Made by a program: the position numbers and the translations under genes. DNA of 64,000 nt. Source: a virus (Duplodnaviria; Heunggongvirae; Uroviricota; Caudoviricetes). Under the pieces are notes generated by a model. It was not told the DNA's origin and made no database searches. It saw nothing but the letters and a program-made list of their open reading frames with translations. Below, in pieces: positions 18,461-57,477 of the stretch (the first letter of the stretch is position 1; the number at the start of each line of letters is the position of its first letter). Location of the stretch: positions 323,539 to 387,538 of the IMG/VR virus record IMGVR_UViG_3300028888_000044. One strand, written 5' to 3'.

Positions 18461-18562
18461 CTAATCATAATGAGCAAAAGCACCAGCTTTCACAAGCTAA
18501 TGCTTTTTATTACCCCATAAAAAAAAAAGGAGATGATATTATGGAGGTATGAAAAAAAGTGT

Positions 18563-18651
18563 TGGTAGAGATGGATTTGAACCACCGAAGCCTCATAAGA
18601 GGCGGCTGTGCCACTAAACACAGCCCCATTTGACCGCTTTGGTATCTACCG
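18563..18651 (-). tRNA. type-II tRNA-like gene, atypical anticodon loop (tRNA-like 1)
   Basis: revcomp cggtaga-ta-cca-aagcggtcaaa-tgg...gcctcttatgaggc(long variable arm)-ggtgg-ttcaaat-ccatc-tctacca-a. It has U8, a 3-bp D stem, GG in the D loop and a 5-bp T arm with TTCAAAT loop. The 1:72 pair is C:A. The anticodon region ctgtg-tttagtgg-cacag gives an 8-nt loop containing TAG. Confidence 0.5.
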
Positions 18652-18653
18652 AA

Positions 18654-18745
18654 TGGTTGATAGAGAGGGATTCGAACCCCCGAAGCCTCCGAAGAGGCGG
18701 TTGAGCTACTAACACAACCCCATTTGACCGCTTTGGTATCTATCG
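18654..18745 (-). tRNA. type-II tRNA-like gene with encoded CCA (tRNA-like 2)
   Basis: About 80% identical to tRNA-like 1; cgataga...ggggg-ttcgaat-ccctc-tctatca-a-cca. The anticodon stem has a T:T mismatch and a loop ttagtag. Confidence 0.5.
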
Positions 18746-18838: not shown

Positions 18839-19381
18839 TTACTTCAAATACAAGTTCTCCAAACGGTTGTTGAACTTATTACCATCTTTATGGAAAAGAC
18901 GCTGGCCTTCTATTGGACCATTGAATGTTTCATAGACAAGATAACAAGCTGTAAGCTGCACTTGCCCCCAAATACAGTGGCTCAAGCGAACTATAGGATT
19001 CTTGTGGTACTTGTTTGCAGTCTGCTTCAAAACATGCTTGGTATATTTGTTGCGGATACGACCAAGGTTTGAAGCCTCATAGTTAGTAAATGGATAATCC
19101 ATTGTCCTCCAAAACTCAATTTCAACCACGTCATAGTTGCTCACAAGCCATCCATATTCATCAGAAAGATAGTTGTTGATGGCATCATAATCGTCAGCTT
19201 CAATGTAATTTGGAAGCTCTACCTCGGTTGGAAGGGTGATGTCTTCACCATCAGTCTCCCATACAATGTTAATAGCTTTATATTTACAATCCATAGTGAT
19301 ATTGTTTTTTAACGCTGCAAAGATAGGTAATAATCGGCAATGCTGCAACTTTTTTGACACCATTAACAAAACTTTAACCAA
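18839..19381 (-). CDS. HNH homing endonuclease (free-standing)
   Basis: C-terminal HKDGNKFNNRLENLYL HNH motif; immediately upstream of the tRNA-like pair. Confidence 0.55.
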   Translation of the reverse strand: MVKVLLMVSKKLQHCRLLPIFAALKNNITMDCKYKAINIVWETDGEDITLPTEVELPNYIEADDYDAINNYLSDEYGWLVSNYDVVEIEFWRTMDYPFTNYEASNLGRIRNKYTKHVLKQTANKYHKNPIVRLSHCIWGQVQLTACYLVYETFNGPIEGQRLFHKDGNKFNNRLENLYLK

Positions 19382-19435
19382 TATGTTAAATTAATGTTAA
19401 AGTACCAGAAATATTTGGAATTGTCGTGAAAAAGC

Positions 19436-19467
19436 TCTATCTTTGCAGCGAGGGAAATAGCGTACAG
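19436..19467 (+). promoter_or_regulatory. conserved box CTATCTTTGCAGCGAGGGAAATAGCGTACAGC (copy c)
   Basis: Exact reiteration; preceded by TGTTAAATTAATGTTAAAG at 19383..19402. Confidence 0.5.
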
Positions 19468-19525
19468 CAAAAAAAATGGCATCATCTCATTTCGAGATAA
19501 TGCCATTCCTTAATGATGTCAGAAC

Positions 19526-19663
19526 TTATGATACTTGAGCTTGACAATCTACGCCTTCCCAATCACACCACAAACAGTGATAGTGAATATGACCATCGTC
19601 ATAGTTATAACCGTCCGATTCAAGCTTTTCCCCACAAATTGGGCAATAACGTACTTCTTCCAT
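19526..19663 (-). CDS. small zinc-ribbon protein
   Basis: MEEVRYCPICGEKL...HCLWCDW, two CxxC pairs; boundaries approximate. Confidence 0.35.
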   Translation of the reverse strand: MEEVRYCPICGEKLESDGYNYDDGHIHYHCLWCDWEGVDCQAQVS

Positions 19664-21050: not shown

Positions 21051-21189
21051 AACTTGTCATCAGATGGCACAAAAAAAAGGACACCCGACAGTAGTCGGAT
21101 GCCCTCCCAAACAAATCTTACTAACCTTAAAAACACGTTGTAGCTCAGATGGGACTCGAACCCATACGGTCGAATGACCAAGGGATTTT

Positions 21190-21970
21190 CTTACTACTCT
21201 TGCTTTGATACAAGCCAACTTCGTGAGTTGTTGTAGTCTGGACTATTTCTTCACCATGCCAATTTGGTTTAGGTGTTTCGTATATAGTCTCTACGCCATT
21301 TAGGATAAATATCCATTTAGTAAGCCATCGCCAAAGTTTATGTCACCATAAACAAGGTTTCTGTTTGTTAGCGAAATTCTACTTCCCAATATTTTTTATT
21401 TATTGTTTTTTCCTTTCGGAAAGGAAGCACTCTTAATGTTTAGACCTCGATAATTATCTGTTTGTGCGTGGCAATTAGGGCATAAAATTTCAAGATTCTC
21501 TAATCTATCATCGGTTGTTATTCCATTTTTATGGTGTAACTCCAATGGTATTTTTTTACCCATCCATTTTGTAAGCCCACAACATTCACATTTTTCTTCT
21601 TTAATTTGTTCTCTAAAAAGCCTATTTTTTAATTTATAAGAACTATAATGAGAATTCTCAACTAATAATTCATCGGTTTTTATTTGGCGTTTAGGATTAA
21701 ATTTTAAACCTATATTCCAACCTTTACCCGTAAAATGTGAAATATCAATTTCATACTTTTCAATAATTTTATGAAGAGTATTATAATTCCCACCACAAGG
21801 TTTTAAATTAAAAAACCTAAGCATTTCAGCAATACTATGTGAACATTTTGCTGCTTCTACATATTCTTCTTTCGTTCTTTCTTTTCTCATATCATATTAC
21901 TTTAATAATAAATAGTACGATATGAGAAAAAGTAATCACGAAATTATGACTATATTTTGGTCTTTACCAA
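21190..21970 (-). mobile_element. group I intron (781 nt) carrying an HNH ORF
   Basis: Inserted between U34 and A35 of the Leu anticodon. The 5' exon ends in U and the intron ends in G. P7 R/S-like elements GCGTAGAGACTATATACG and AAATAGTCCAGACTAC lie in the 3' 200 nt. Confidence 0.65.
21396..21890 (-). CDS. intron-encoded HNH homing endonuclease
   Basis: LELHHKNGITTDDRLENLEILCPNCH HNH motif plus CECCG zinc knuckle. Confidence 0.75.
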   Translation of the reverse strand: MRKERTKEEYVEAAKCSHSIAEMLRFFNLKPCGGNYNTLHKIIEKYEIDISHFTGKGWNIGLKFNPKRQIKTDELLVENSHYSSYKLKNRLFREQIKEEKCECCGLTKWMGKKIPLELHHKNGITTDDRLENLEILCPNCHAQTDNYRGLNIKSASFPKGKNNK

Positions 21971-24251: not shown

Positions 24252-24391
24252 CATCTTTGTTTTTTTTCGTGGTGCAAAGTTATGAAATTAATAGCATATC
24301 AGCAAGAAATAATACTGTATTAACAAATTTTTAACAGTATAGTTAAATCCAAGTTAAAGTGCTTAAAATATTTTGTACTCTCACTGAAAAG

Positions 24392-24426
24392 CACTATCTT
24401 TGCAGCGAGGGAAAGAGCGTACAGCT
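24392..24426 (+). promoter_or_regulatory. conserved box CACTATCTTTGCAGCGAGGGAAAGAGCGTACAGC (copy e)
   Basis: Exact reiteration followed by TTGTCATCAAAAGGCAC + A-run and a hairpin that serves as minus-strand terminator for tRNA-Gln. Confidence 0.5.
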
Positions 24427-24512
24427 ACTTGTCATCAAAAGGCACAAAAAAAGCATCGAGCATAATGCCCGATGCAAAAACATTAAAAAACAATAACTAT
24501 TAACAAAGCTTG

Positions 24513-24585
24513 TTGTCCCTCCAAGACTCGAACTCGGACTTTCAGACTCAAATTCTGACGTGCTAACCGACTACACCAAGGGACA
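24513..24585 (-). tRNA. tRNA-Gln(UUG)
   Basis: revcomp tgtccct-tg-gtgt-agtcggtta-gcac-g-tcaga-atTTGag-tctga-aagt-ccgag-ttcgagt-cttgg-agggaca-a. Canonical cloverleaf with anticodon TTG, U33 and A37. Confidence 0.8.
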
Positions 24586-24599
24586 GTGTTGAATTGCTT

Positions 24600-25390
24600 T
24601 TATAAATATATAGAAAAATAAAATATAAAGCAAATAGAAAAGAAAAAAAAAGTGCCGATGGGAGCCAACGTGCCAAGGGACGTGCGATTGTGGGGACCTT
24701 TCTCATCTTCATAGGTCCGCACCGTGCAGTGCGTAGGGGCGATTGTTGTAGCTCTCATCGGCTTTTACCCAAGGGCCGACTGTGCGGCATAGTTATGCGG
24801 CATTAACTATCCTCACTCATTTATTTTGCCGCTAATAATGAGATTATTGGAACCTTGGTTTCAATGGGCATTCTCGTGGACTCGATGGCGTAGAAAGGCG
24901 CAAGTATCTGCTTGTCGGAGTGGCACAGTGACCGCGTAAAGCGTATTATAGTTTGTGCAGACTCGGAATAATGTCTCTCGTGGGAATCGCGCAAGCATAA
25001 ACGCGCGGTAAAATGAGACTTACGTAATGCGTTGTAGCACCTTGGATAGGATATAATCGCCTATCCACGAAAATGCCCGAAAATTTTATATTTCCTTTTA
25101 GCTTGAATACCGATTTCTATCTTGTCGATGTACATAACTTGTGCGCTTGTTGAGCTAATATTATACACGCAGTTTGTTCAATGCACCAAGTATAGAAGAA
25201 ATTAACAGTTTTAATTGGGCTGTCCCCTAATGTGCTGCCTCATAGCTGTAGGATTTACAAGTTACACATACCTTTAGATTCATTTCTCAATTAATAATTT
25301 TGATTTACCCTCAAAGGGGTCGGTCTCTTGCATTCATCGGTATGTCGGTCAGTTAAGTTGTTGATTATTACCCCACTGTTTGGTTGGGCT
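24600..25390. ncRNA. candidate large structured non-coding RNA (GC-rich ORF-free island)
   Basis: About 790 nt with no ORF over 60 aa on any frame and markedly higher GC than the flanks. It has many local hairpins, e.g. gccgactgtgcggc and ggataggatataatcgcctatcc, and sits between tRNA-Gln and a promoter-driven 41-aa ORF. Confidence 0.35.
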
Positions 25391-25391
25391 A

Positions 25392-25517
25392 TCACTTTGC
25401 CCAATAACTACCCTCTTTGGCGAAGATGCTGTAACGAATCTCGTCCTTACCAAACTTGTGCGGTACTGCGAAAACGCGCTTGCTTTCTACTGCTGAATTA
25501 AAACGTCCTTTTGCCAT
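25392..25517 (-). CDS. hypothetical 41-aa protein
   Basis: MAKGRFNSAVESKRVF...; minus -7 box CAAAgaTA about 40 nt upstream at about 25558..25565; coordinates within 2 nt. Confidence 0.35.
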   Translation of the reverse strand: MAKGRFNSAVESKRVFAVPHKFGKDEIRYSIFAKEGSYWAK

Positions 25518-25611
25518 AGTTGTTAGTTGTTTTTATTTGTTTTTATTAATTTTGACGATGCAAAGATAGGGCTTTTATCGTTACCTTGCAAGAAATTTTA
25601 GGTCTTTAACA

Positions 25612-25902
25612 TTATTTTAACACTTCGTGAACAATATTCAAACTTGTTACAACTAAATGAGTGTCATTTGTATTATAAGTGCGTTCACTATACGTGTACT
25701 CACAATACATAATGTCATTGCCATCTGAATTGGTTATCTTCACAACACACTTGTTTTCATTTGGGTCAATACTCTCAACAACGATTGACAGATTTTCACC
25801 CAAAACTTTTTTTAAGTTTGCCACTAAAGATTGTGGAAGATAGGAAATAACCATTCCCACACCAATTCCCAAACGATTGAAAATATCTTGTAATACTGTC
25901 AT
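25612..25902 (-). CDS. hypothetical protein
   Basis: ORF 96 aa. Confidence 0.5.
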   Translation of the reverse strand: MTVLQDIFNRLGIGVGMVISYLPQSLVANLKKVLGENLSIVVESIDPNENKCVVKITNSDGNDIMYCEYTYSERTYNTNDTHLVVTSLNIVHEVLK

Positions 25903-43459: not shown

Positions 43460-44509
43460 TCAATTGACCCAAACTTCTTCATCGTATCCACCATTTTCAA
43501 TTGCGTTTCTGTAGAATTCGATTTCGTCAATTGAAATTGGTTTGTAATTGTTTGCATCTACACCTACATTGTAGCCGAACTTCTTGCACTTCTGTGTTCC
43601 GTGAATATGTCCGAACAGAATGAATGAATCTTTAAGATTGAATTCGTTCTTGAACTGAAGTCCTATAGATGGCTCGTGGGTCAATATGTATGACTTGCCG
43701 TTGGATAATTTTTCAATTACAACCTTGAGGGAAAACTTACCATATCCAATATATGCCACTGATGGCTCTTGTGACTTCCCTTCACGTTCGTAGTTACCTT
43801 GCAAGAAATGCAAAGTGCCATTTAGATAGTGGCTATATTCTGTTTCACCGAAATCTCCCAAATGATAGATTTTGTCACAAGGATGAACTGTGTTGTTCCA
43901 ATTCTCAATCAAGGAGAAATCCATATCCTTGACATCAAGGAATGGTCGCTTTGAGAGTTGTAGAATCCTTTCAGAACCGAAATGGGTGTCGCTTGTGAAA
44001 TACACCTTTGGTGATTTTTCACATTCATCGATATACTCAACGAGAGAAGCGATACAGTCTTCGAGAGAGCTGTGCACAGTACCCATATGGTACTGTTCCA
44101 ATTTCTTTTGGAAATAGTCTCTGCCGCCAAATTCGTCATAACATCCGAAAATGATTTTCTTGCCTCTTGCGATATACTCACCGAATTCAGTCCGTGTTGT
44201 TTGCGCGTAATCGTGGTGGTGCTTTTGAAGCTCTTCGGTATTGGATGGTTTTGGAATCCAAAAGAGGATTACGTCAGCAAATCTCATATTAACTTCCTCC
44301 CAATCAACTTGTTCGTCATAGTTGAAATTCTTGTAGCTTTCACGTCTTGGCGAGAACCAAATTACATTATCGAGATTTGGCATGTTGTGTTGCCATTTTT
44401 CTGCTCCGAAAATTGGACCAGCTAGAAATACGTGCCACTTTGTCTTTGGTAAAATACCACCTAATTCATTCTTTAACTCATTGAATTTTGTTGGACAGCA
44501 AATAGTCAT
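43460..44509 (-). CDS. two-domain protein: N-terminal nucleoside 2-deoxyribosyltransferase-like fold plus C-terminal calcineurin-like metallophosphoesterase
   Basis: N-terminal VFLAGPIFG..W resembles the YLAGPF motif of NDT-fold enzymes. C-terminal HLGDFG, LQGNYE and ILFGHIHG match phosphoesterase metal-ligand motifs. Confidence 0.45.
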   Translation of the reverse strand: MTICCPTKFNELKNELGGILPKTKWHVFLAGPIFGAEKWQHNMPNLDNVIWFSPRRESYKNFNYDEQVDWEEVNMRFADVILFWIPKPSNTEELQKHHHDYAQTTRTEFGEYIARGKKIIFGCYDEFGGRDYFQKKLEQYHMGTVHSSLEDCIASLVEYIDECEKSPKVYFTSDTHFGSERILQLSKRPFLDVKDMDFSLIENWNNTVHPCDKIYHLGDFGETEYSHYLNGTLHFLQGNYEREGKSQEPSVAYIGYGKFSLKVVIEKLSNGKSYILTHEPSIGLQFKNEFNLKDSFILFGHIHGTQKCKKFGYNVGVDANNYKPISIDEIEFYRNAIENGGYDEEVWVN

Positions 44510-48445: not shown

Positions 48446-51400
48446 ATGGAGATAACTAATAGTATTGTCAAGAATTGTTTAACTGAATATGTACAAGATA
48501 GGTTTCAATTATTGACTGAAGACCAAAAAAGAACAATTCGCAACAAAATAACAAGGGTTGTTTCATCAAGAGTACCTCATAGTGTTGATGATACCCAAAT
48601 GATTGAGAAATTGGTTGATGATATATGGAATACATATGTTCTTCACCCACTTCACGATGGGGTTCATCATAGGCAAAATGATGAAATCACTATAATCAAT
48701 CAGAACATTGAAAGATTGATTCCATATGTTATAAAGCAAAAAAGTGATAATGAATCTGAAAATGTTACTTACTATATTACAACAAATCCAAGAATTCGCA
48801 ACAGTTGGGAGAACTTGATACAAGCACAAAGGCAGAATAGAAATGTAACTTTGTGGAGAGATGATGGTGGTGATTTGACTTATTGGGATGTAAACAAACG
48901 TTATAATGATGCGATAAATTCTGCTAAAAACACGAAAATTGAAGGCAAGTACCATTACTCTGTTTACAAGGTAGAAAACTACGATACACCAATTGAAGGG
49001 TTGGGAATGACAGTTAGAGAACTTGGACAGTATACTGGTGGAAAAGGCTCGCTAAGCTGTGTACCGTTGTGCTATACACAATCTCTAAATACGTATAACA
49101 ATTACACAAAAGGCAATGAATACAATATGTATGCTCTACTGCGTGACGGTTGGCAGAATGAACCATGCAAAATGACAGAAGGTTATCCATTGGATAGCTA
49201 TGGTCTTTCTATGATATTCGTCATAATAAGTCCTACTGGAAATATAGTAAACAACAATGTAAGATGGAATCACGGCCCAAATGGGTATCCAAGAAGTGTT
49301 GACAACATATTCACTTATAAGGAATTGACAGAAATTGTTGGTAGCGATGTAATGGAACAACTTAACACTACTATTGATGTTGACCAATCGTTACGTTTGA
49401 CATATGAGGTTGAAACTAAACTTAAAGAAGGTCAAGATATTAACGACATATTTACTTCTAAAGGTAAAGAATGCTGTGGTTATATACCAGTTTGTTATAT
49501 GCGTAAATGGAATATTATTGATTCTTCAAAGTCATTGTTATGTGACGAATGGTTCGATGGTATTGGCGCTTTTCATCCAAATGGTTTTTGTTATGTTTGT
49601 AAGAACCACTTATATAACTTTATTGATGTTAATGGAGAATTTGTTTGGGATAGACCGTTTGAAGAATGGTTTGATTCCATTGATTCGTGGTCATTTGATG
49701 ATAATGGTTTGTGTAAGGTTATGAATCACTATAAGTATAATTGGTTAAAGACTGATGGTACACTATTATTTAATAACCAACAACAAGAATGGCTAAATAA
49801 TGCTGGTGATTTTCATAATCAAATTGCTTATATAAAATTACATGGTAAATACAATTATATTAGAACTGATGGCTCATTTGTTTGGGATTATGATGACACA
49901 CAATATTGGTTTGATGATGTTGCTGATAAAGGTTTTAATAACTCCAATGTTGCTGTGGTAACAATTGACAGATTGGTTAATTTATTGAAAACAGATGGTA
50001 CACTAGTTTGGAATAAATCACCCGAATTATGGTTTAATGCCATTGTTAATAATAGTGTTAACGATGGGATATTCCAAGTAAAACGTAGCAATAAATATAA
50101 TTTCCTAAGAATGGATGGTACATTGGTTTGGCAGAAACCTTTTAATGAATGGTTTACATCAATTGGAGCATTCTATAATGGTTTGGCAAAAGTAACTACA
50201 TCATTTGGTGAAACATATAATTTTATTAAAATTGATGGAACATTGCTGTTTGACGAAACAGATGATACAAAACATTTTGATAAAACTGGTAATTTCGCTA
50301 GTGGACCAGCATTTGTTTGCATAAATAATAAATATAATTTCATTAGAGAAGACGGAACTTATATTTGGGATAAACCAATAGGACAATGGTTTGATAGTGT
50401 TAGCGAATATTTTAGAGAAGGTTTTGCTTGTGTGCGCAAGAAAGGAGTTGCAAATTTTATATCTACAGAAGGAAAGTTGTTATGGAAGAAACCATTAAAA
50501 GATTGGTTCAGTGGTGTAGACCCTTTTTATCAAGGGATAGCACAAGTACGAAAGAATGGCAAAAGTAATTACATACGAACAAACGGGAAATTAGTTTTGA
50601 ATAAACCATTTGATGAGTGGTTTTTATGGATGGGTGAGGTTATAAATAGCCCTAATATATTTATTGTAAGAGATGCAATGAGATATAACTATATTAAAGA
50701 TGGCGAATTGTTATATAACCAACCTCGTACAAAATGGTTTACTGATATAAGCAGAATACTTGATAAAATCAATGATAATATATCTGGCTTCCTTGTACAA
50801 AAGGGATATAAGTACAATTTCTTGAAACTTGATGGAACACTTCTCAATAGCAGTTTCGTAAGTAAAAGTGAATTAGAATCTATAATTCGAAGAATAAAAC
50901 ATCAATCGTCCAATATACAAGAATCCTTAAGGGAATATGTAACTAAAAATTTACAACTTCTTACTGAAGACCAGAAGAAGACAATTCGTAACAAGATTGC
51001 AAGAGGTATTGTTTCAATGACTAATCTTGATGTAAACAGTACTGAAGTACAATCGTTAGTAGATAATGTTTGGAATACATATGTTGTGCATCCAGTTGAA
51101 GGAGAGAAGCGACAGAATGACGAGATTACTGTTATTAATCAGAACATTGAAAGATTAGTTCCGTATGTCTTGAAGCAAAATGATTCTGAAAATTACTTTA
51201 TAAGCAACAATCCAAGGATTCGTAAAAGTTGGGAAAACTTGATACAAACCCAAAGGCAGAACAGACAAACCAAGCTATGGCAAGACAATGATAATTTGCT
51301 TTATTGGAATACCAATAAAAAGTATAATGATGCAATAAATGCCGCAACAAGTGAAGAAATTAAAGGCAAGTATCATTATAGTGTGTATAAGATAGAAGAT

Positions 51401-54400
51401 TACCATACGCCAATTGAAGGCTTGGGAATGACTGTTACAGAACTTGGCAAGTATACTGGTGGGCAAGGCGCAGTGCCTTTGTGTTATACACAAGGTGAAT
51501 CAACATATAACAGTTATACTGAAAACAATCAATTTAATATGTATGCTGTGTTGCGTGATGGATGGCAGAATGAACCTTGTGAGATTGAAGAAGATTATCC
51601 ATTGGATAGCTATGGTTTATCAATGATATTTGTCATTATTGATGAAAATGGAAAGATTGAATACAGTAATGTAAGATGGAATCACGGTCCAAGAAATTAC
51701 GCAAGAAGTGTTGACCACATATTCTCGTACAATGAATTGAGGGATATTGTTGGAAGTAATGTAATTAAGCAAGTTGGTGCACATGTAGAAATAGACACAT
51801 CGTTACAATTGACATATGAGGTAGAGAAAAAGTTAAAACAAGACTTATCTATTTACCAAATATTTGGTGATGTTGGCTTTTTTAAGGACGGTTTGGCAAA
51901 GGTTTACTATTCTGGTTTATTCAATTACATAGATTCATCTGGAGACTTACTAACTGATGAATGGTTTGATTCTTGTGCTCCATTTCAAAATGGGCTTGCT
52001 GCGGTACGAAAAGGACAAAAGGTAAATTATATAAAGACAGACGGTACTTATTTATACAACACAGATAATACTGATGATTGGCTTACTATGGCTTGTGATT
52101 TTGATGAAAATGGTTCTGCTATCGTTGGAAAGAATAATAAATACAATTTTATTCTAAAAGATGGCACATTCATTTGGAAAGGTGAATGGTTTGATTTGGT
52201 TGGTGATTTTATTAATGATATTGCTCTAGTTAAAAAAGATAACAAAGCTAATTTTTTAAGATTTGATGGTACATTAGTTTGGAATTATGAAAATACAAAT
52301 GATTGGTTTGATGATGCTACTAATTTTAGTGCGGATTATAATATCGCAGTGGTACGAAAAGGAGGTAAAGGTAATTATTTGAAGACTGATGGTACATTGG
52401 TTTGGAATTATCTTGACACAAAGAAATGGTTTGATACTGTTTGCCATTTTTATGATGGTTTAGCTCAAGTTAAAATCAACTATAAGTATGAAGAAAAATG
52501 GAACTACCTCAAACTAGATGGAACTTTTTTATGGAAGAAGCCATTAAAACAGTGGTTTGATAATGCTTATAGGTTTGATGAAGGTGTTGGTATAATAGAA
52601 TATAAAGGTAAAAACAATTGGTTAACAACCAAAGGTGAAATATTTTGCCCAGATATGTGGTTTGATTGGGTTGGAACATTTCACAAAGGGATTACTAAAG
52701 TAGAAATAAACGGTAAATTTAACTTTTTAAATAGTAATGCTAAGTTATTGTGGGGGTCTTACGATGACACAACAGATTGGTTTGATTACGTTGAGAGGAT
52801 TGAGCAAGGATATGCTAAAGTAAGAAATCAAGGACGTTGGAACATATTACGACCAGATGGTAAATTATTGTGGGATTATCCAAATCCTCAAGATTGGTTT
52901 AATAATATGGGTACACTTGATAAAGAAGAAATAATATATGTTTCAAAAGATGGTAAAAGTAATTATTTAAATCTTCAAGGTAAACTTCTAAGCCAAAATT
53001 GGTTTGATAGTTGTTTTGTATTTGAGAATGGCGTTGGTAAAGTTCAAAAAGACCAACGCATGAATCTAATCAGAAAAGATGGCACATTTGTATGGAACAG
53101 ACCATTGAAAGATTGGTTTATTTTCATTGGTGAAGTAGACTCATTTGGTAATTCAGAGGTATACACGCATTATCAAGGTGCAACAGTTGGTAACTTATTG
53201 AAAATAGAAGATGGTACGTTACTGTGGAAGAAAAGTCCAAAATTATGGTTTCGTTACATTGACGTTAATAAGATATTACCAAATGGTGTAAAAGGTTATA
53301 GAGTCTCCAAGACAACAAAGACTATGATGAAGTATAACTTCTTAAAGTTAGATGGTACTCTTCTTTTCAAAACATTTTTATCTAGTCACAGCTATAATTT
53401 GGCAATGCATACTTTAAGGGATAATGATAATCAAATAATACAAGAATCTTTACGAGAATATGTTAAAGATAAGTCGTTGTTGGCTGAAGCAGATTCACGA
53501 ATTAAGGGAACTAGAAACGCAATTAAAAGGGGTATTGCTGCAATAACCAAACTTGACATTAATGACCCTATTGTAGAAAACTTGACCAATGATGTTTGGA
53601 ATACTTATGTTGTTCATCCTATCGCAAATGAAAATCGTCAGCTTGACGAATATATTGCCATTAGGAATAATGCTGACAGACTTCTTATGTACGCGGTAAA
53701 ACAGAACCAAGATGGCACATATTACATAACAAAAAATCCACGTTTGAAAAATGGCTTTGAGAATCTTATTCAAGCACAAAGGAAAGACAATACAAAACCA
53801 ATACTTGATAATAATGCAAATTTGTTCCAATGGTATAACACACAGAAATACAATCAAGCATTGGAAAACTTACAAGCCAATAGTAAAAAAATACTGAAAG
53901 GTCAATATAGTTACAAAGCATATCCAATCACTGATTTTTATGATAACATTAAAGGCTTGGGAATGACTGTTAAAGACCTTGGGGAGTGGACTGGTAGTGA
54001 AGAAGCTGTCGAATTGTGCTATACTCAATTTGAAAATACGTATAACCAATATACACACGGCAACAAATACAATATGTATGCTTTATTGCGCCAAGGTTGG
54101 CAAGACGAGCCTTGTGAGAAAGGAGAAGGCTATCCTTATGACAGCTACGGTCTTTCTATGATATTCGTAATTATCGATGATAATGGTGATATAGCTACAA
54201 GTAATGTTAGATGGAATCACGGTGACAATTCTTATTCTAATGTAGATAATATGTTCAACTATGCTAAATTAGTACAAATTGTTGGTTCTAATATACTTAA
54301 TAAAATACATTGTACATATAATGATGACATAACTCGTAATATGTCACTTATAGTAAGACTTGAAAAAGCTTTAAGCAATATCGATGCAACTGATGTTGAT

Positions 54401-55591
54401 TCGTTTTTTGATGTTTTCAATAACATTTCATACCAATATGAAGATTTGGAAAATGTTGAGCTATTTACTCTTGGAAGTGATAGGCTAATAACAGTAGAAT
54501 ATGAAGAAACATATGCAAATATATATGATATAAAAGAGAAGCATTTTATTTCAGATGAGTGGTTTTCTAGTATTTCGAATTATGAATGCGGCTATAGTGC
54601 AGTACAATTCTTAAATGATGGAACATGGAATTTTATTGATGAAGAAGGTAATTTTTTAAATGACAAGCGTTATGACCACTGTTATGATTTTGACAACGGA
54701 TACGCTGTTATTAAAAATAATCAAGAAATGTATGAAGTAATAAATATAAAAGGTGAAACATTGTTTACTACAGATAAACTAGTCAGGATTATTGGAGAAG
54801 AACGTGTAGCTTATGAAGCATCTAATTATTCCTTATTATTGGATATGAGCGGTAAAAAAGTAGTTGACACATATTTTGATTATATTGGTTATTGTTACTG
54901 CGAAGGATATATTACAGTAAAAGTTGATAATAGAGTTAATTTTATAGATGCAAATGGAAAATATTTATCAGACGTTTGGTATGTTGATATTGAACAACCA
55001 TTTTCAAACGGATGCGCTGTTGTTAAGTGTGATAATTATCTTATAAATATGATTAATAAAAAAGGTCAAAAGCTACTTAAAGAAGATGCTATAAGATGGA
55101 AAACAATATATGATTCTAAATATGAGAATATATTGTACTATATATTTGATTTAAGACAGTCAGACGGTCATATTAAAGAATTTGTAAAAACAAACGGTCA
55201 AATTATATGTGATGCTCTAACTTTTAGTGAAGCAAATCACCTTAAGATGTTAAAAATTCAATTTTTAGATGAAAGTTGGAACTATTTAAAAGAAGATGGT
55301 ACAATGTTATTACCATATACTTGTTATGAAATTTCAGATTTCTATGAGCACTCTTATAATCAAGATATAAAATTTGCAATTATCAAAAAAGAGAAAAATA
55401 AAGAATGTGTTATTGATGTAAATGGAAATGAAATGACAGAAGAATATGTTGCAATGTATCCTTTAGCAAGAACTGAAAACTATGTTGCTTTAGGTGTAAA
55501 AGGTCCAGAAGATGGTTACAAAATTGATTGGCAGTTTAATGCAATAAAAATAAGTAAGGATGAGCTTGTTGATATGATTATGAATAATTAA
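48446..55591 (+). CDS. giant 2381-aa protein: three tandem ~800-aa modules, each an N-terminal conserved domain followed by WG-repeat arrays, plus a distinct C-terminal region
   Basis: Module starts near aa 1, ~815 and ~1640 all contain LREYV.K.LQLLTEDQK.TIRNKI... and the conserved block YHYSVYK..GLGMTV.ELG.YTGG..CYTQ..YNMYALLRDGWQNEPC..YPLDSYGLSMIFVII..NVRWNHG. Dozens of YNFI..DGT..W...WFD WG-type repeats follow each. Confidence 0.7.
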   Translation: MEITNSIVKNCLTEYVQDRFQLLTEDQKRTIRNKITRVVSSRVPHSVDDTQMIEKLVDDIWNTYVLHPLHDGVHHRQNDEITIINQNIERLIPYVIKQKSDNESENVTYYITTNPRIRNSWENLIQAQRQNRNVTLWRDDGGDLTYWDVNKRYNDAINSAKNTKIEGKYHYSVYKVENYDTPIEGLGMTVRELGQYTGGKGSLSCVPLCYTQSLNTYNNYTKGNEYNMYALLRDGWQNEPCKMTEGYPLDSYGLSMIFVIISPTGNIVNNNVRWNHGPNGYPRSVDNIFTYKELTEIVGSDVMEQLNTTIDVDQSLRLTYEVETKLKEGQDINDIFTSKGKECCGYIPVCYMRKWNIIDSSKSLLCDEWFDGIGAFHPNGFCYVCKNHLYNFIDVNGEFVWDRPFEEWFDSIDSWSFDDNGLCKVMNHYKYNWLKTDGTLLFNNQQQEWLNNAGDFHNQIAYIKLHGKYNYIRTDGSFVWDYDDTQYWFDDVADKGFNNSNVAVVTIDRLVNLLKTDGTLVWNKSPELWFNAIVNNSVNDGIFQVKRSNKYNFLRMDGTLVWQKPFNEWFTSIGAFYNGLAKVTTSFGETYNFIKIDGTLLFDETDDTKHFDKTGNFASGPAFVCINNKYNFIREDGTYIWDKPIGQWFDSVSEYFREGFACVRKKGVANFISTEGKLLWKKPLKDWFSGVDPFYQGIAQVRKNGKSNYIRTNGKLVLNKPFDEWFLWMGEVINSPNIFIVRDAMRYNYIKDGELLYNQPRTKWFTDISRILDKINDNISGFLVQKGYKYNFLKLDGTLLNSSFVSKSELESIIRRIKHQSSNIQESLREYVTKNLQLLTEDQKKTIRNKIARGIVSMTNLDVNSTEVQSLVDNVWNTYVVHPVEGEKRQNDEITVINQNIERLVPYVLKQNDSENYFISNNPRIRKSWENLIQTQRQNRQTKLWQDNDNLLYWNTNKKYNDAINAATSEEIKGKYHYSVYKIEDYHTPIEGLGMTVTELGKYTGGQGAVPLCYTQGESTYNSYTENNQFNMYAVLRDGWQNEPCEIEEDYPLDSYGLSMIFVIIDENGKIEYSNVRWNHGPRNYARSVDHIFSYNELRDIVGSNVIKQVGAHVEIDTSLQLTYEVEKKLKQDLSIYQIFGDVGFFKDGLAKVYYSGLFNYIDSSGDLLTDEWFDSCAPFQNGLAAVRKGQKVNYIKTDGTYLYNTDNTDDWLTMACDFDENGSAIVGKNNKYNFILKDGTFIWKGEWFDLVGDFINDIALVKKDNKANFLRFDGTLVWNYENTNDWFDDATNFSADYNIAVVRKGGKGNYLKTDGTLVWNYLDTKKWFDTVCHFYDGLAQVKINYKYEEKWNYLKLDGTFLWKKPLKQWFDNAYRFDEGVGIIEYKGKNNWLTTKGEIFCPDMWFDWVGTFHKGITKVEINGKFNFLNSNAKLLWGSYDDTTDWFDYVERIEQGYAKVRNQGRWNILRPDGKLLWDYPNPQDWFNNMGTLDKEEIIYVSKDGKSNYLNLQGKLLSQNWFDSCFVFENGVGKVQKDQRMNLIRKDGTFVWNRPLKDWFIFIGEVDSFGNSEVYTHYQGATVGNLLKIEDGTLLWKKSPKLWFRYIDVNKILPNGVKGYRVSKTTKTMMKYNFLKLDGTLLFKTFLSSHSYNLAMHTLRDNDNQIIQESLREYVKDKSLLAEADSRIKGTRNAIKRGIAAITKLDINDPIVENLTNDVWNTYVVHPIANENRQLDEYIAIRNNADRLLMYAVKQNQDGTYYITKNPRLKNGFENLIQAQRKDNTKPILDNNANLFQWYNTQKYNQALENLQANSKKILKGQYSYKAYPITDFYDNIKGLGMTVKDLGEWTGSEEAVELCYTQFENTYNQYTHGNKYNMYALLRQGWQDEPCEKGEGYPYDSYGLSMIFVIIDDNGDIATSNVRWNHGDNSYSNVDNMFNYAKLVQIVGSNILNKIHCTYNDDITRNMSLIVRLEKALSNIDATDVDSFFDVFNNISYQYEDLENVELFTLGSDRLITVEYEETYANIYDIKEKHFISDEWFSSISNYECGYSAVQFLNDGTWNFIDEEGNFLNDKRYDHCYDFDNGYAVIKNNQEMYEVINIKGETLFTTDKLVRIIGEERVAYEASNYSLLLDMSGKKVVDTYFDYIGYCYCEGYITVKVDNRVNFIDANGKYLSDVWYVDIEQPFSNGCAVVKCDNYLINMINKKGQKLLKEDAIRWKTIYDSKYENILYYIFDLRQSDGHIKEFVKTNGQIICDALTFSEANHLKMLKIQFLDESWNYLKEDGTMLLPYTCYEISDFYEHSYNQDIKFAIIKKEKNKECVIDVNGNEMTEEYVAMYPLARTENYVALGVKGPEDGYKIDWQFNAIKISKDELVDMIMNN

Positions 55592-55596
55592 AAAAT

Positions 55597-55640
55597 AAAT
55601 GATGCCGAATAAATTTGTATTCGGCATCATTTATTTTTTA
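55597..55640. terminator. bidirectional terminator
   Basis: gatgccgaataaatttgtattcggcatc hairpin flanked by A- and T-runs. Confidence 0.6.
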
Positions 55641-55893
55641 ATTGCATTCTGTTCATTACATAAACAGCCTCTTCTTCACAGTCGAATTCCAAGCTTTGCT
55701 CGAACCATAATGAGGTATACCCAAAAAAGTAGTTACAAGCGATAACATATCGAGTTTCGCCATTTCTTTGCTTTTTGATTATTTTATACCTTTTAGCAAA
55801 ACTTGCATATTCACCGTTTGTCTGTATAGCGTGATAGTGCAAATATAATGCAATAAAAGGTGATAAAAGAAGCATTCCTAAAATAAATCCCAT
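55627..55893 (-). CDS. small membrane protein
   Basis: N-terminal hydrophobic helix. Confidence 0.4.
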   Translation of the reverse strand: MGFILGMLLLSPFIALYLHYHAIQTNGEYASFAKRYKIIKKQRNGETRYVIACNYFFGYTSLWFEQSLEFDCEEEAVYVMNRMQLKNK

Positions 55894-55956
55894 AGTAGTA
55901 ATTTTTTTTACGATGCAAATATAGCAATATTAATTGATATTAGCAAATTTTTTTAG

Positions 55957-57477
55957 TTAAAAATCGTTAATAGTGCTTTCCATCATTTCTATATCCACCT
56001 CACCTTTATCTATACGCTTGCTTTCCAACAAGAAGAAAGCCTCTGTTTTAAGCTTAAATGCTTCTTTTAATTCATCGCCAACGATTCTCAATACAAAGCC
56101 TTCACGAGGTACTTTATTATGACAAAGAGGTTCATTCTTTTCCATGAAGAATCTTTTTTCCTTACCAAGAAGTTCAAGTACATTTTCATGCCAATGATTT
56201 TCGGTATCGACTTCTGGGTAAAAATCAGCCAACTTGCCACGGAAAAGCACGTCAAGTACGAAAAGTCTGTCAGCAATTTCTGGGCGTTCATTCATTAGAT
56301 TCTTAGTCCAATTTATTACTTCATCAACTTCCCATTCTTTTTTAGAGCCATCTTCGTTAGTTGTCGTTATTCTATATGGCATAAATTTATTATGACCAAC
56401 TTCACATCCATAATCGTAATTTCCAGTAGCAAACATTTTTTGCAAACCAGTTTCGTAGCCAAAAATTTCACCATAAACTGTCATACCTTCTTGTATAGCC
56501 CCTTTCAATATCTCGTTATATTCTGCCCATACGTCTGTTTTATAATAACATTCTGTGCTATTTTCGTTGATATATTGGTTTCTAATTTGGTGTCTAGATG
56601 AATATATGGTATCATATACATATTCTATCTTTTGTAATTTGATAGGCAATGAATGGCAAACCTTATTCACTATATTGGTTAGCCAACCAAATGGTGTACT
56701 ATATTGCTTTGGTCTTTTTGTTAGAACATTTGCAAATATTGCAGAAGTGCCATGTATTTTAGTAGTGATAATTACTTCAGTATCTGGTTTAATCAAATTA
56801 AAATTCTTCTTAAGTGGCTGTGTATCATAATGAAAGAAGAATTGGCCTGGAATCATTCGGTCATATCGTTTGATTTTCTTTTGGCTCCACGTATATTCTC
56901 GTACAATTCTTTTTTTCTGTGGTATATATGGAACATATGCTTTGATAAACAATTCACCATTGACTGTATCAAAGTCGTAACCTATATAATCCTTCAAATT
57001 GATATTAACTATTTCTGGACAAAACTTTGCCATTGTTTCAATACTAAACAAGAAACCGCTAGAATCAACACCTCTAAGTCTAATCATTTTTACTCTTCGG
57101 TGTTTGGTAAAAAAACCAGTGTTTTCTTTAATCAACGATTCCAATCTTGAAACTTCTTCCAAATCTTGATTTGTTTTTGCCAATTGAAGCTGTGTAAGGA
57201 TTTTACCTACTTGAACCGCATTTGCGTTCTTGTCGAATTCGCTTTGTTCAAACAGATTATTTACTGACAAGAATCGTTCATTTAGTTGTGTTTCGTTTTC
57301 AGCATAGAACATCAAATCACCTTGCTTTACCAAATCTCGTCTGACTACAATTGTTTGTCCGTTTACTTTTGTTGATGCAAGAAAATCAGAATTTGGTATA
57401 GGTTCAATCTCACCAACCTCAATGATTGACGCACAGTATTCGTGGTTTATATGTTCTGATTGTTCTAGTATTTTCAT
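55957..57477 (-). CDS. ATP-dependent RNA ligase, Rnl2-like
   Basis: Nucleotidyltransferase motif I TKIHGTS (KxHG, as in T4 Rnl2 KIHGTN) and downstream GEIFGY motif III-like. Confidence 0.55.
   Translation of the reverse strand: MKILEQSEHINHEYCASIIEVGEIEPIPNSDFLASTKVNGQTIVVRRDLVKQGDLMFYAENETQLNERFLSVNNLFEQSEFDKNANAVQVGKILTQLQLAKTNQDLEEVSRLESLIKENTGFFTKHRRVKMIRLRGVDSSGFLFSIETMAKFCPEIVNINLKDYIGYDFDTVNGELFIKAYVPYIPQKKRIVREYTWSQKKIKRYDRMIPGQFFFHYDTQPLKKNFNLIKPDTEVIITTKIHGTSAIFANVLTKRPKQYSTPFGWLTNIVNKVCHSLPIKLQKIEYVYDTIYSSRHQIRNQYINENSTECYYKTDVWAEYNEILKGAIQEGMTVYGEIFGYETGLQKMFATGNYDYGCEVGHNKFMPYRITTTNEDGSKKEWEVDEVINWTKNLMNERPEIADRLFVLDVLFRGKLADFYPEVDTENHWHENVLELLGKEKRFFMEKNEPLCHNKVPREGFVLRIVGDELKEAFKLKTEAFFLLESKRIDKGEVDIEMMESTINDF

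Follow-up and report, generated by a model that had tools for sequence, protein, structure and literature searches.

Large structured RNAs of unknown role are rare in bacteria and phages, the main examples being GOLLD, ROOL and OLE, and each new class of such large RNAs has so far been informative on RNA architecture. Published examples of ROOL stem mostly from Firmicutes and their phages. A smaller precedent is provided by phage T4, whose tRNA cluster harbors the stable RNAs C and D (species 1 and 2) of ~120-140 nt, which are cotranscribed with tRNAs and freed by tRNA-processing enzymes and whose function is unknown. ROOL, first found in cow rumen metagenomes, is a large noncoding RNA of unknown function that often lies by tRNAs in phages or prophages, while GOLLD is a very large structured RNA that is likewise often located near tRNAs and in prophages (PMC5737381); GOLLD forms RNA-only multimers (PMC12286853). 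Here, we describe an island free of open reading frames (ORFs) at positions 24600-25390 of a 64,000-nt stretch of phage DNA (positions 323,539 to 387,538 of the IMG/VR record IMGVR_UViG_3300028888_000044; hereafter, the window). The island shares the genomic context of ROOL and GOLLD: its GC-rich core lies 68 nt from a tRNA-Gln gene on a huge-phage contig, a resemblance already pointed out in a preliminary description of the locus.

The island is noncoding and is probably best regarded as a plausible new phage noncoding RNA outside any known family. Our preferred reading, held tentatively and as somewhat short of an even chance, is that a phage transcript of the minus strand has the island as its noncoding body; transcription from this strand, stability, a defined fold and any function are all proposed from the DNA sequence.

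Coding content and conservation of the island

The following parts of the island are distinguished, listed in the order in which a minus-strand RNA would contain them:

25370-25391, no strand assigned: right boundary and spacer, defined by the alignments; site of a 176-bp insertion in one lineage
25097-25369, no strand assigned: domain 2, the most conserved part, ~36% GC, with invariant blocks of 25-38 nt
25220-25233, minus strand: invariant block, ACAUUAGGGGACAG in the minus-strand RNA, which can pair with pre-tRNA-Gln; inverted repeat I14
25081-25096, no strand assigned: variable linker between the domains; 14 nt deleted in lineage L045, rearranged in lineage L049
24866-25078, no strand assigned: sub-domain D1c, a multibranch fold with a 15-bp closing helix (24866-24880/25064-25078); inverted repeat I6
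24763-24865, no strand assigned: sub-domain D1b, with the closing pair CCAAGG (24769) and CCUUGG (24853)
24654-24762, no strand assigned: sub-domain D1a, an irregular 109-nt hairpin with a 12-bp basal stem (24654-24665/24751-24762); inverted repeat I15
24643-24651, minus strand: U9 tract (A9 on the plus strand), 2 nt (AC) past the D1a stem

The longest ORF touching 24586-25391 comprises 57 aa, in line with the earlier statement that no frame exceeds 60 aa, and none spans the island when TAG, TGA or TAA is read as a sense codon. With a cut-off of 70 aa, no other ORF-free gap of the window is as large or as rich in GC as the interval 24278-25611 (1334 bp). A six-frame Pfam search of the island returned no signal. 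The indels among the related lineages introduced below measure 1, 2, 4, 12 and 14 nt and are placed in the linker (25081-25096) or in predicted loops, and the comparison of L049 with the window yields, in its best frame, 0 synonymous and 8 non-synonymous differences. A candidate small ORF in domain 2 was dropped, its start codon being destroyed in L045. Within 24708-24945, 12 of the 18 differences to L045 share one codon phase; this pattern is unexplained and may be due to chance. Coding was rejected for this segment as well because its frames hold stops and because the 1-nt deletion of L049, together with the counts of 0 and 8, speaks against the sole frame with any periodicity. A protein-coding gene, including one relying on Lak-type stop recoding, can therefore be dismissed—there is no open frame, indels are not confined to multiples of three, the substitution counts are 0 vs 8 and Pfam is empty—which also disposes of the hidden protein under a non-standard genetic code that the preliminary description had considered.

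The earlier account further described the interval as visibly richer in GC than its surroundings. At 42.0% GC for 24600-25390 in a window of 33.8%, this holds for the left ~430 bp (49.7% in the core, 24650-25080) and fails for the right third (25097-25369, ~36%), so that the GC-rich island is really its left 430 bp. The remaining GC-rich islands of the window are coding, and no paralogue of the island was found within the window.

All known relatives belong to one small clade of huge phages that comprises four lineages. The window type itself recurs, 100% identical, on four additional contigs that stem from four other samples, which establishes that the island sequence is real. A second type (L049, L016, L050 and L125) is ~97% identical and carries a 1-nt deletion at 24698. 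It is also the only type with a 176-bp insertion (L049:10517-10692), which separates 25369 from 25370 exactly at the right edge of the island, is not a repeat and holds a weak hairpin that precedes a T-run on the plus strand. The third lineage, L048, is ~98% identical and covers the island from 24988 rightwards, and L045, the most distant of the four, covers it from 24704 rightwards. The identity of domain 2 amounts to 91.9% in L045, 97.8% in L049 and 98.2% in L048, and that of 24704-25080 to 91.2% in L045. The same comparison with L045 gives 87% for a neighboring 41-aa ORF, 77% for the promoter and leader and 80% for a 96-aa ORF, in which 30 of the 55 differences fall at third codon positions (about one third of its 91 codons). 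On the L045 contig, the divergence of the island is thus ~3-4x below that of the third codon positions of both flanking ORFs. Judged by this slower pace relative to nearby synonymous sites, the island is under sequence constraint. Conservation in related genomes, on which the proposal of an RNA had been made to depend, is thereby borne out, with 91-92% identity to L045 for the island vs 80-87% for the flanking genes, whose third codon positions have diverged by ~30%.

The 41-aa ORF is a real small gene without a known family: ten synonymous and four non-synonymous codon differences separate the window from L045, indicating purifying selection. It has nothing significant in Pfam, and a search of 5.8 billion proteins recovered its own cluster only.

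Global searches did not extend this set of relatives. Neither a distant-mode blastn search of 50,697 phage records, run at E <= 10 as well, nor the use of the tRNA as an anchor or of a 249-aa neighbor as a tblastn query against phage records added any relative to the four lineages. The same outcome was obtained when IMG/VR was scanned with five 15-mers, a 22-mer and a protein-based query and the loci were filtered by BLAST or nhmmer, when JGI metagenomes were scanned, and when the three flanking ORFs were searched against the 5.8 billion proteins and followed by contig look-ups. Scans of GTDB genomes revealed no bacterial carrier, the sole match being a chance 20-mer in Abditibacterium.

Predicted fold, strand and extent of a proposed transcript

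A well-known sign of structured RNA genes in AT-rich genomes is a GC-rich island that lacks ORFs. The folding of the island was compared with shuffles of the folded segments (100 dinucleotide shuffles for the 433-nt core) and with 24 other 430-nt windows of the genome. As stated previously, the island contains many short hairpins; its core folds as three adjacent closed domains on either strand, and none of the 100 shuffles is as stable on either strand (z -3.4 plus, -3.1 minus). D1a contributes z-scores of -4.5 (plus) and -3.1 (minus), with 0/200 shuffles as stable, D1c -2.7 and -4.2, and D1b -1.9 and -0.7. Multibranch domains are part of the predicted folds. The structure conservation index (SCI) of either strand is ~0.9, a value that such closely similar sequences would be expected to give.

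Several one-sided changes preserve predicted pairs. In L045, the helix that closes D1c has its lone C-A mismatch turned into C-G by A>G at 25071, and C>A at 24901 restores a pair that is lost through a change at 24913-14 common to L045 and L049. The hairpin 24987-25008 retains its pairing as wobbles after three transitions, albeit on the plus strand only. Taken together, these predictions are suggestive of an RNA structure. The thermodynamic signal is real, though not exceptional for this genome. Among the control windows, 19200-19630 (a promoter cassette plus terminator) reaches z -6.5 and 55600-56030 z -4.2.

In order to place a transcript, the flanking features need to be considered:

25556-25621, minus strand: promoter region with the -7 box CTATCTTTGCA at 25559-25569; expected to drive the 41-aa ORF and, judging from where it lies, the island
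25392-25517, minus strand: ORF of 41 aa encoding a basic peptide (MAKGRFNSAVESKRVFAVPHKFGKDEIRYSIFAKEGSYWAK); gene called in every relative
24586-24642, minus strand: AT-rich spacer with TTTG (24634-24631), 20 nt and TATATTTA (24610-24603), as read from the sequence
24512-24585, minus strand: tRNA-Gln (anticodon UUG), found by ARAGORN; 58 bits with the Rfam tRNA model
24453-24475, minus strand: intrinsic terminator 3' of the tRNA
24342-24445, plus strand: promoter of the same class with its box at 24394-24404 and a conserved downstream leader starting GCGAGGGAAAGAGCGTACAGC

All four elements that had been said to bracket the island, i.e. the minus-strand promoter with its tiny ORF on one side and tRNA-Gln with its terminator on the other, are present. 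Genes of this phage carry a Bacteroidota-style -7 box upstream, and the extended box CTATCTTTGCA occurs 22 times in the window vs 1.7 copies expected. The Bacteroidota -33/-7 promoter consensus is TTTG / TAnnTTTG. The box at 25559-25569 is the only minus-strand promoter box upstream of the island, and no other minus TAnnTTTG box lies inside it. Minus-strand units also end, on their 3' side, in the two confirmed tRNAs (18562-18745) and in a tRNA-like sequence (~21140-21244). Because of the promoter at 25569, the U9 tract after D1a and the position of these other tRNAs, the layout favors transcription of the minus strand.

Where the transcript would end is suggested by a feature missed in the first reading of the sequence, namely the D1a hairpin with its U9 tract (minus, 24762-24643). 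Runs of at least eight A within 16-32 kb are mostly the tails of minus-strand terminators, and D1a resembles the intrinsic terminators of this genome in that a GC-rich basal stem is followed, after 2 nt, by a U-tract, although the loop is far larger than usual: the irregular hairpin measures 109 nt, unlike the terminator-like sites of the region (23-40 nt). The U9 tract is likely to mark the 3' end of the transcript or an attenuator ahead of the tRNA, and the transcript may accordingly stop short of tRNA-Gln. A terminator or attenuator would account for no more than the final 120 nt of the island.

The spacer adds a further signal, as its putative -7 box TATATTTA fits the Bacteroidota consensus at 7 of 8 positions; TTTG-N20-TATATTTA is thus a possible separate promoter of tRNA-Gln. 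The earlier proposal that everything from the promoter to the terminator is transcribed as one minus-strand unit stands as far as the promoter and terminator layout is concerned, and is called into question by the terminator-like D1a-U9 element before the tRNA, by the possible spacer promoter and by the opposing promoter of the same class at 24394-24404. We consider a minus-strand unit that includes the tRNA plausible, not secure.

Under the preferred reading, transcription would start at the strong phage promoter (25569) and first encode the 41-aa basic peptide. The transcript would then continue through ~720 nt of conserved noncoding RNA, in which the AT-rich conserved part (25369-25097) would be followed by a linker that can be dispensed with and by three stem-loop domains rich in GC (25078-24654). 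Its 3' end would either lie at the last domain with the U9 tract (~24645) or be generated after read-through, the RNA then being set free by RNase P, which would cut at the 5' end of tRNA-Gln. The product would thus be a noncoding RNA, stable and structured, with a role in trans in the infected cell, and would broadly resemble GOLLD, ROOL and T4 RNAs C and D in kind.

A number of observations weigh against this proposal. The higher conservation of the island rests mainly on a single diverged lineage (L045) and could be mimicked by recent recombination. The best-conserved part (domain 2, 25095-25372) has z-scores of -0.26 (plus) and +0.46 (minus); of the large structured RNA originally envisaged, only ~430 nt fold better than shuffles, and not exceptionally so for this genome, and the conserved 270 nt lack excess stability. 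In addition, 5 of the 24 control windows reach z <= -3, mostly at terminators and promoter cassettes. Among the four close lineages, double-sided changes affect 1 of 188 consensus pairs on the plus strand and 2 of 139 on the minus strand, and the covariation term of RNAalifold is unfavorable (+6.7). D1a is unusually long for a terminator hairpin. Lastly, with respect to strand, the core is G/U-rich on the plus strand (GC skew +0.11, opposite to the neighboring genes), substitutions of the G-U type at Watson-Crick pairs number 6 on the plus and 3 on the minus strand, helix-end neighbor substitutions number 10 and 3, and each sub-domain is 4-15 kcal/mol stabler on the plus strand in every lineage.

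These last points bear on the strongest competing explanation, a functional RNA on the plus strand that would start at the promoter 24394, run through the antisense of the terminator and tRNA-Gln and enter the island, where it would form many G-U pairs. That promoter, the second feature overlooked in the first reading, faces the island through the antisense of tRNA-Gln and is directed into it (24394-24404). The G/U-rich composition of the core is usual for structured RNAs and runs contrary to the skew of the neighboring genes. The counts of G-U-type and helix-end changes, the greater stability in all lineages and the wobble-preserving hairpin 24987-25008 likewise speak for the plus strand, as do slightly better shuffle controls of the consensus pairs (18/500 plus vs 47/500 minus) and, in the L049 lineage, the weak hairpin and T-run just beyond the island.

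The promoter 24394 is, however, not specific to this locus. It belongs to one of three identical divergent-promoter cassettes of the window (19316/19437, 20898/21019 and ~24273/24394), each with a minus box and a plus copy exactly 121 nt to its right, that face the ends of upstream minus-strand units. The plus leader of these cassettes, GCGAGGGAAA(G/T)AGCGTACAGC(A/T)ACTTGTCATCA.A.GGCAC, extends into the terminator of the upstream unit, with its A-tract and hairpin, and the cassettes could represent a family of short antisense or terminator-proximal RNAs. Similarity between the minus promoter of the island and the plus copy at 24342-24407 extends upstream of the promoter (inverted repeats I1-I3). 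Moreover, a plus-strand transcript must cross the antisense tRNA, and the window lineage has no plus-strand terminator past the island. The G-U comparison involves few events and presupposes the predicted helices. In addition, z-scores and SCI fail to separate the strands, and D1c favors the minus strand.

Overall, z-scores, SCI, Watson-Crick-only folds with wobble counts and alifold on both strands gave a mixed result as to strand, and contig ends, used as a stand-in for transcript ends, were scattered and uninformative. Among the RNA readings, we provisionally favor the minus strand at slightly better than an even chance and regard the plus strand as the less likely one. As an explanation of the whole locus, a plus-strand RNA appears unlikely to us.

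The preferred minus-strand RNA might alternatively serve the adjacent tRNA in cis. The idea of a regulatory leader was raised by a 14-bp complementarity to pre-tRNA-Gln: the block 25233-25220 can pair with positions -1 to +13 of the precursor, including three G-U pairs. In such a leader, D1a and U9 would act as a conditional terminator or attenuator, and pairing of 25233-25220 with the 5' acceptor strand of the tRNA would delay or gate its folding and RNase P processing. The terminator-like D1a-U9 element indeed lies immediately upstream of the tRNA, the duplex has a predicted energy of -21.9 kcal/mol that is equalled by 3 of 500 shuffles, and the block 25220-25233 is invariant in 4/4 lineages. 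The 5' decamer of the tRNA also recurs at 24673 and 24769, with spacings of 97 and 96 nt (repeat family D2).

Yet, the complementarity was noticed post hoc, and 720 nt far exceeds the need of any known tRNA leader. The promoter-like signal of the spacer would, if functional, uncouple the tRNA from the island, and the 97-nt units are alike in the decamer only. An origin of this periodic decamer by tandem tRNA duplication was rejected, as no extended similarity was found. We rate a cis-acting leader as quite unlikely, a step below the plus-strand RNA.

Nonfunctional and DNA-based explanations and the genomic setting

Slightly less likely still is that the island has no function at all and represents a decayed gene or a captured GC-rich fragment, whose seeming conservation stems from lineages that are close or have recently exchanged DNA. 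Only four lineages are available, three of which are at least 97% identical, the GC content is foreign to the genome, the folding z-scores are ordinary for it, and the shared codon phase of the 12 differences in 24708-24945 would suit a former gene. Against this stands the divergence ~3-4x below that of the flanking third codon positions of the same contig. There is also no detectable remnant of a protein, the frameshifting indels and the 0 vs 8 counts in L049 are unlike those of a recently active gene, and the database searches uncovered no bacterial or other phage source.

We assign the lowest probability to a constraint acting on the DNA itself, as in a replication origin, a packaging site or a large regulatory region with protein-bound CCWWGG sites. 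The window has 34 CCWWGG sites, five of which crowd into 470 bp (24576-25045), one of them in the 5' end of tRNA-Gln, and a 65-bp AT-rich tract adjoins the GC-rich inverted repeats of the island. Fold stability is alike on both strands, and the best-conserved part is devoid of an RNA-fold signal. Since three of the clustered sites read CCAAGG and two CCTTGG, they can also pair with one another. This explanation falters on a cumulative GC skew without a turning point at the island, the lack of iterons or tandem repeats beyond the 10-mers, irregular stems, in which bulges and wobble positions interrupt what would otherwise be clean palindromes, the location of the island inside a promoter-to-terminator unit, and a near-uniform constraint over 700 bp that is unusual for binding sites.

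As for the phage itself, the window sequence is also present on contigs of up to 387 kb, indicating a very large phage. The name of one related contig, STEW19, hints at cattle rumen as its origin. Among the genes of the window are those for a T4-type prohead protease, an RNA ligase and a phosphoesterase, and the nearest GenBank phage via the protease is an uncultured 484-kb phage with 36% amino-acid identity. The phosphoesterase (phrog_547; 43460-44509) and the RNA ligase (phrog_968; 55957-57477) lie on the minus strand and may form an RNA or tRNA repair set of the phage. The largest gene of the window is a single ORF of 2381 aa (48446-55591, plus strand).

Several tRNA genes of the region are atypical in their own right. 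Two adjacent tRNAs of ~90 nt on the minus strand (18562-18651 and 18657-18745) feature long variable arms and enlarged anticodon loops. ARAGORN assigns the 4-base anticodon 'tagt' to one and Thr(agt) to the other, and their Rfam scores do not exceed 32 bits. The pair may represent tRNAs with unusual decoding or a suppressor function. The tRNA-like gene at 21140-21260 (minus) has a clear T-arm, is missed by default ARAGORN and Rfam, and is called tRNA-Leu(CAA) with an 8-nt insert by relaxed ARAGORN with introns allowed. Part of it (21178-21257, 84.7%) is the sole DNA similarity to the Lak-B1 to B9 megaphages within the compared interval 16000-40000.

Relation to known RNA families

To relate the island to described RNAs, Rfam 15 was searched by cmscan at gathering thresholds as well as at E <= 10 on slices of 1.5 kb, 451 nt and 311 nt of both strands. 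The tRNA alone was matched, with no family on the island on either strand. In the absence of a match to any Rfam model, the island is not assigned to GOLLD, ROOL, HEARO, an intron, RNase P RNA or transfer-messenger RNA (tmRNA), in agreement with the initial suspicion that it may be an undescribed RNA. Specifically, the covariance models of ROOL (RF03087) and GOLLD (RF01998) remained unmatched at both settings. Group I and II introns (RF00028, RF00029 and the D1-D4 families) lacked an Rfam match too, and there are no split exons, since the 41-aa ORF and the tRNA are both complete. RNase P RNA and tmRNA were likewise rejected for want of a match; ARAGORN at relaxed thresholds made only implausible calls, and the permuted tmRNA that it reported at 80% was treated as spurious, its tag being implausible. 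In the literature, we found no paper that ties megaphages or Lak phages to such an RNA.

A more ambitious version of the preferred reading holds that the island founds a new class of large RNA with a complex fold, functionally akin to ROOL and GOLLD yet unrelated to them in sequence, carried by huge phages of rumen Bacteroidota. Its synthesis would be coupled to that of a small basic peptide and a tRNA, and during infection it would exist as a stable RNA or a ribonucleoprotein particle. We regard this version as rather unlikely, if less so than any of the rival explanations above, and the very narrow distribution of the island limits both the evidence and the immediate impact. If true, it would mean that the carriage of large RNAs is a recurrent strategy of phages rather than a quirk of Firmicutes phages, and the locus would offer a compact study case, with a peptide, an RNA and a tRNA under one promoter.

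Compared with the T4 stable RNAs C and D, no sequence relation to the island was found, although its phage, too, has a T4-type prohead protease. Relative to GOLLD, the island is smaller and without a model match, the likeness residing in its location next to a tRNA and in a phage. Unlike ROOL, which is widespread and known from three phyla, the island is known from a single small clade, and its phage uses promoters of the Bacteroidota type. At ~720 nt, the island is itself large and, as is often the case for ROOL, adjoins a tRNA gene, here tRNA-Gln, and belongs to a phage, in this instance one from samples that appear to be ruminal.

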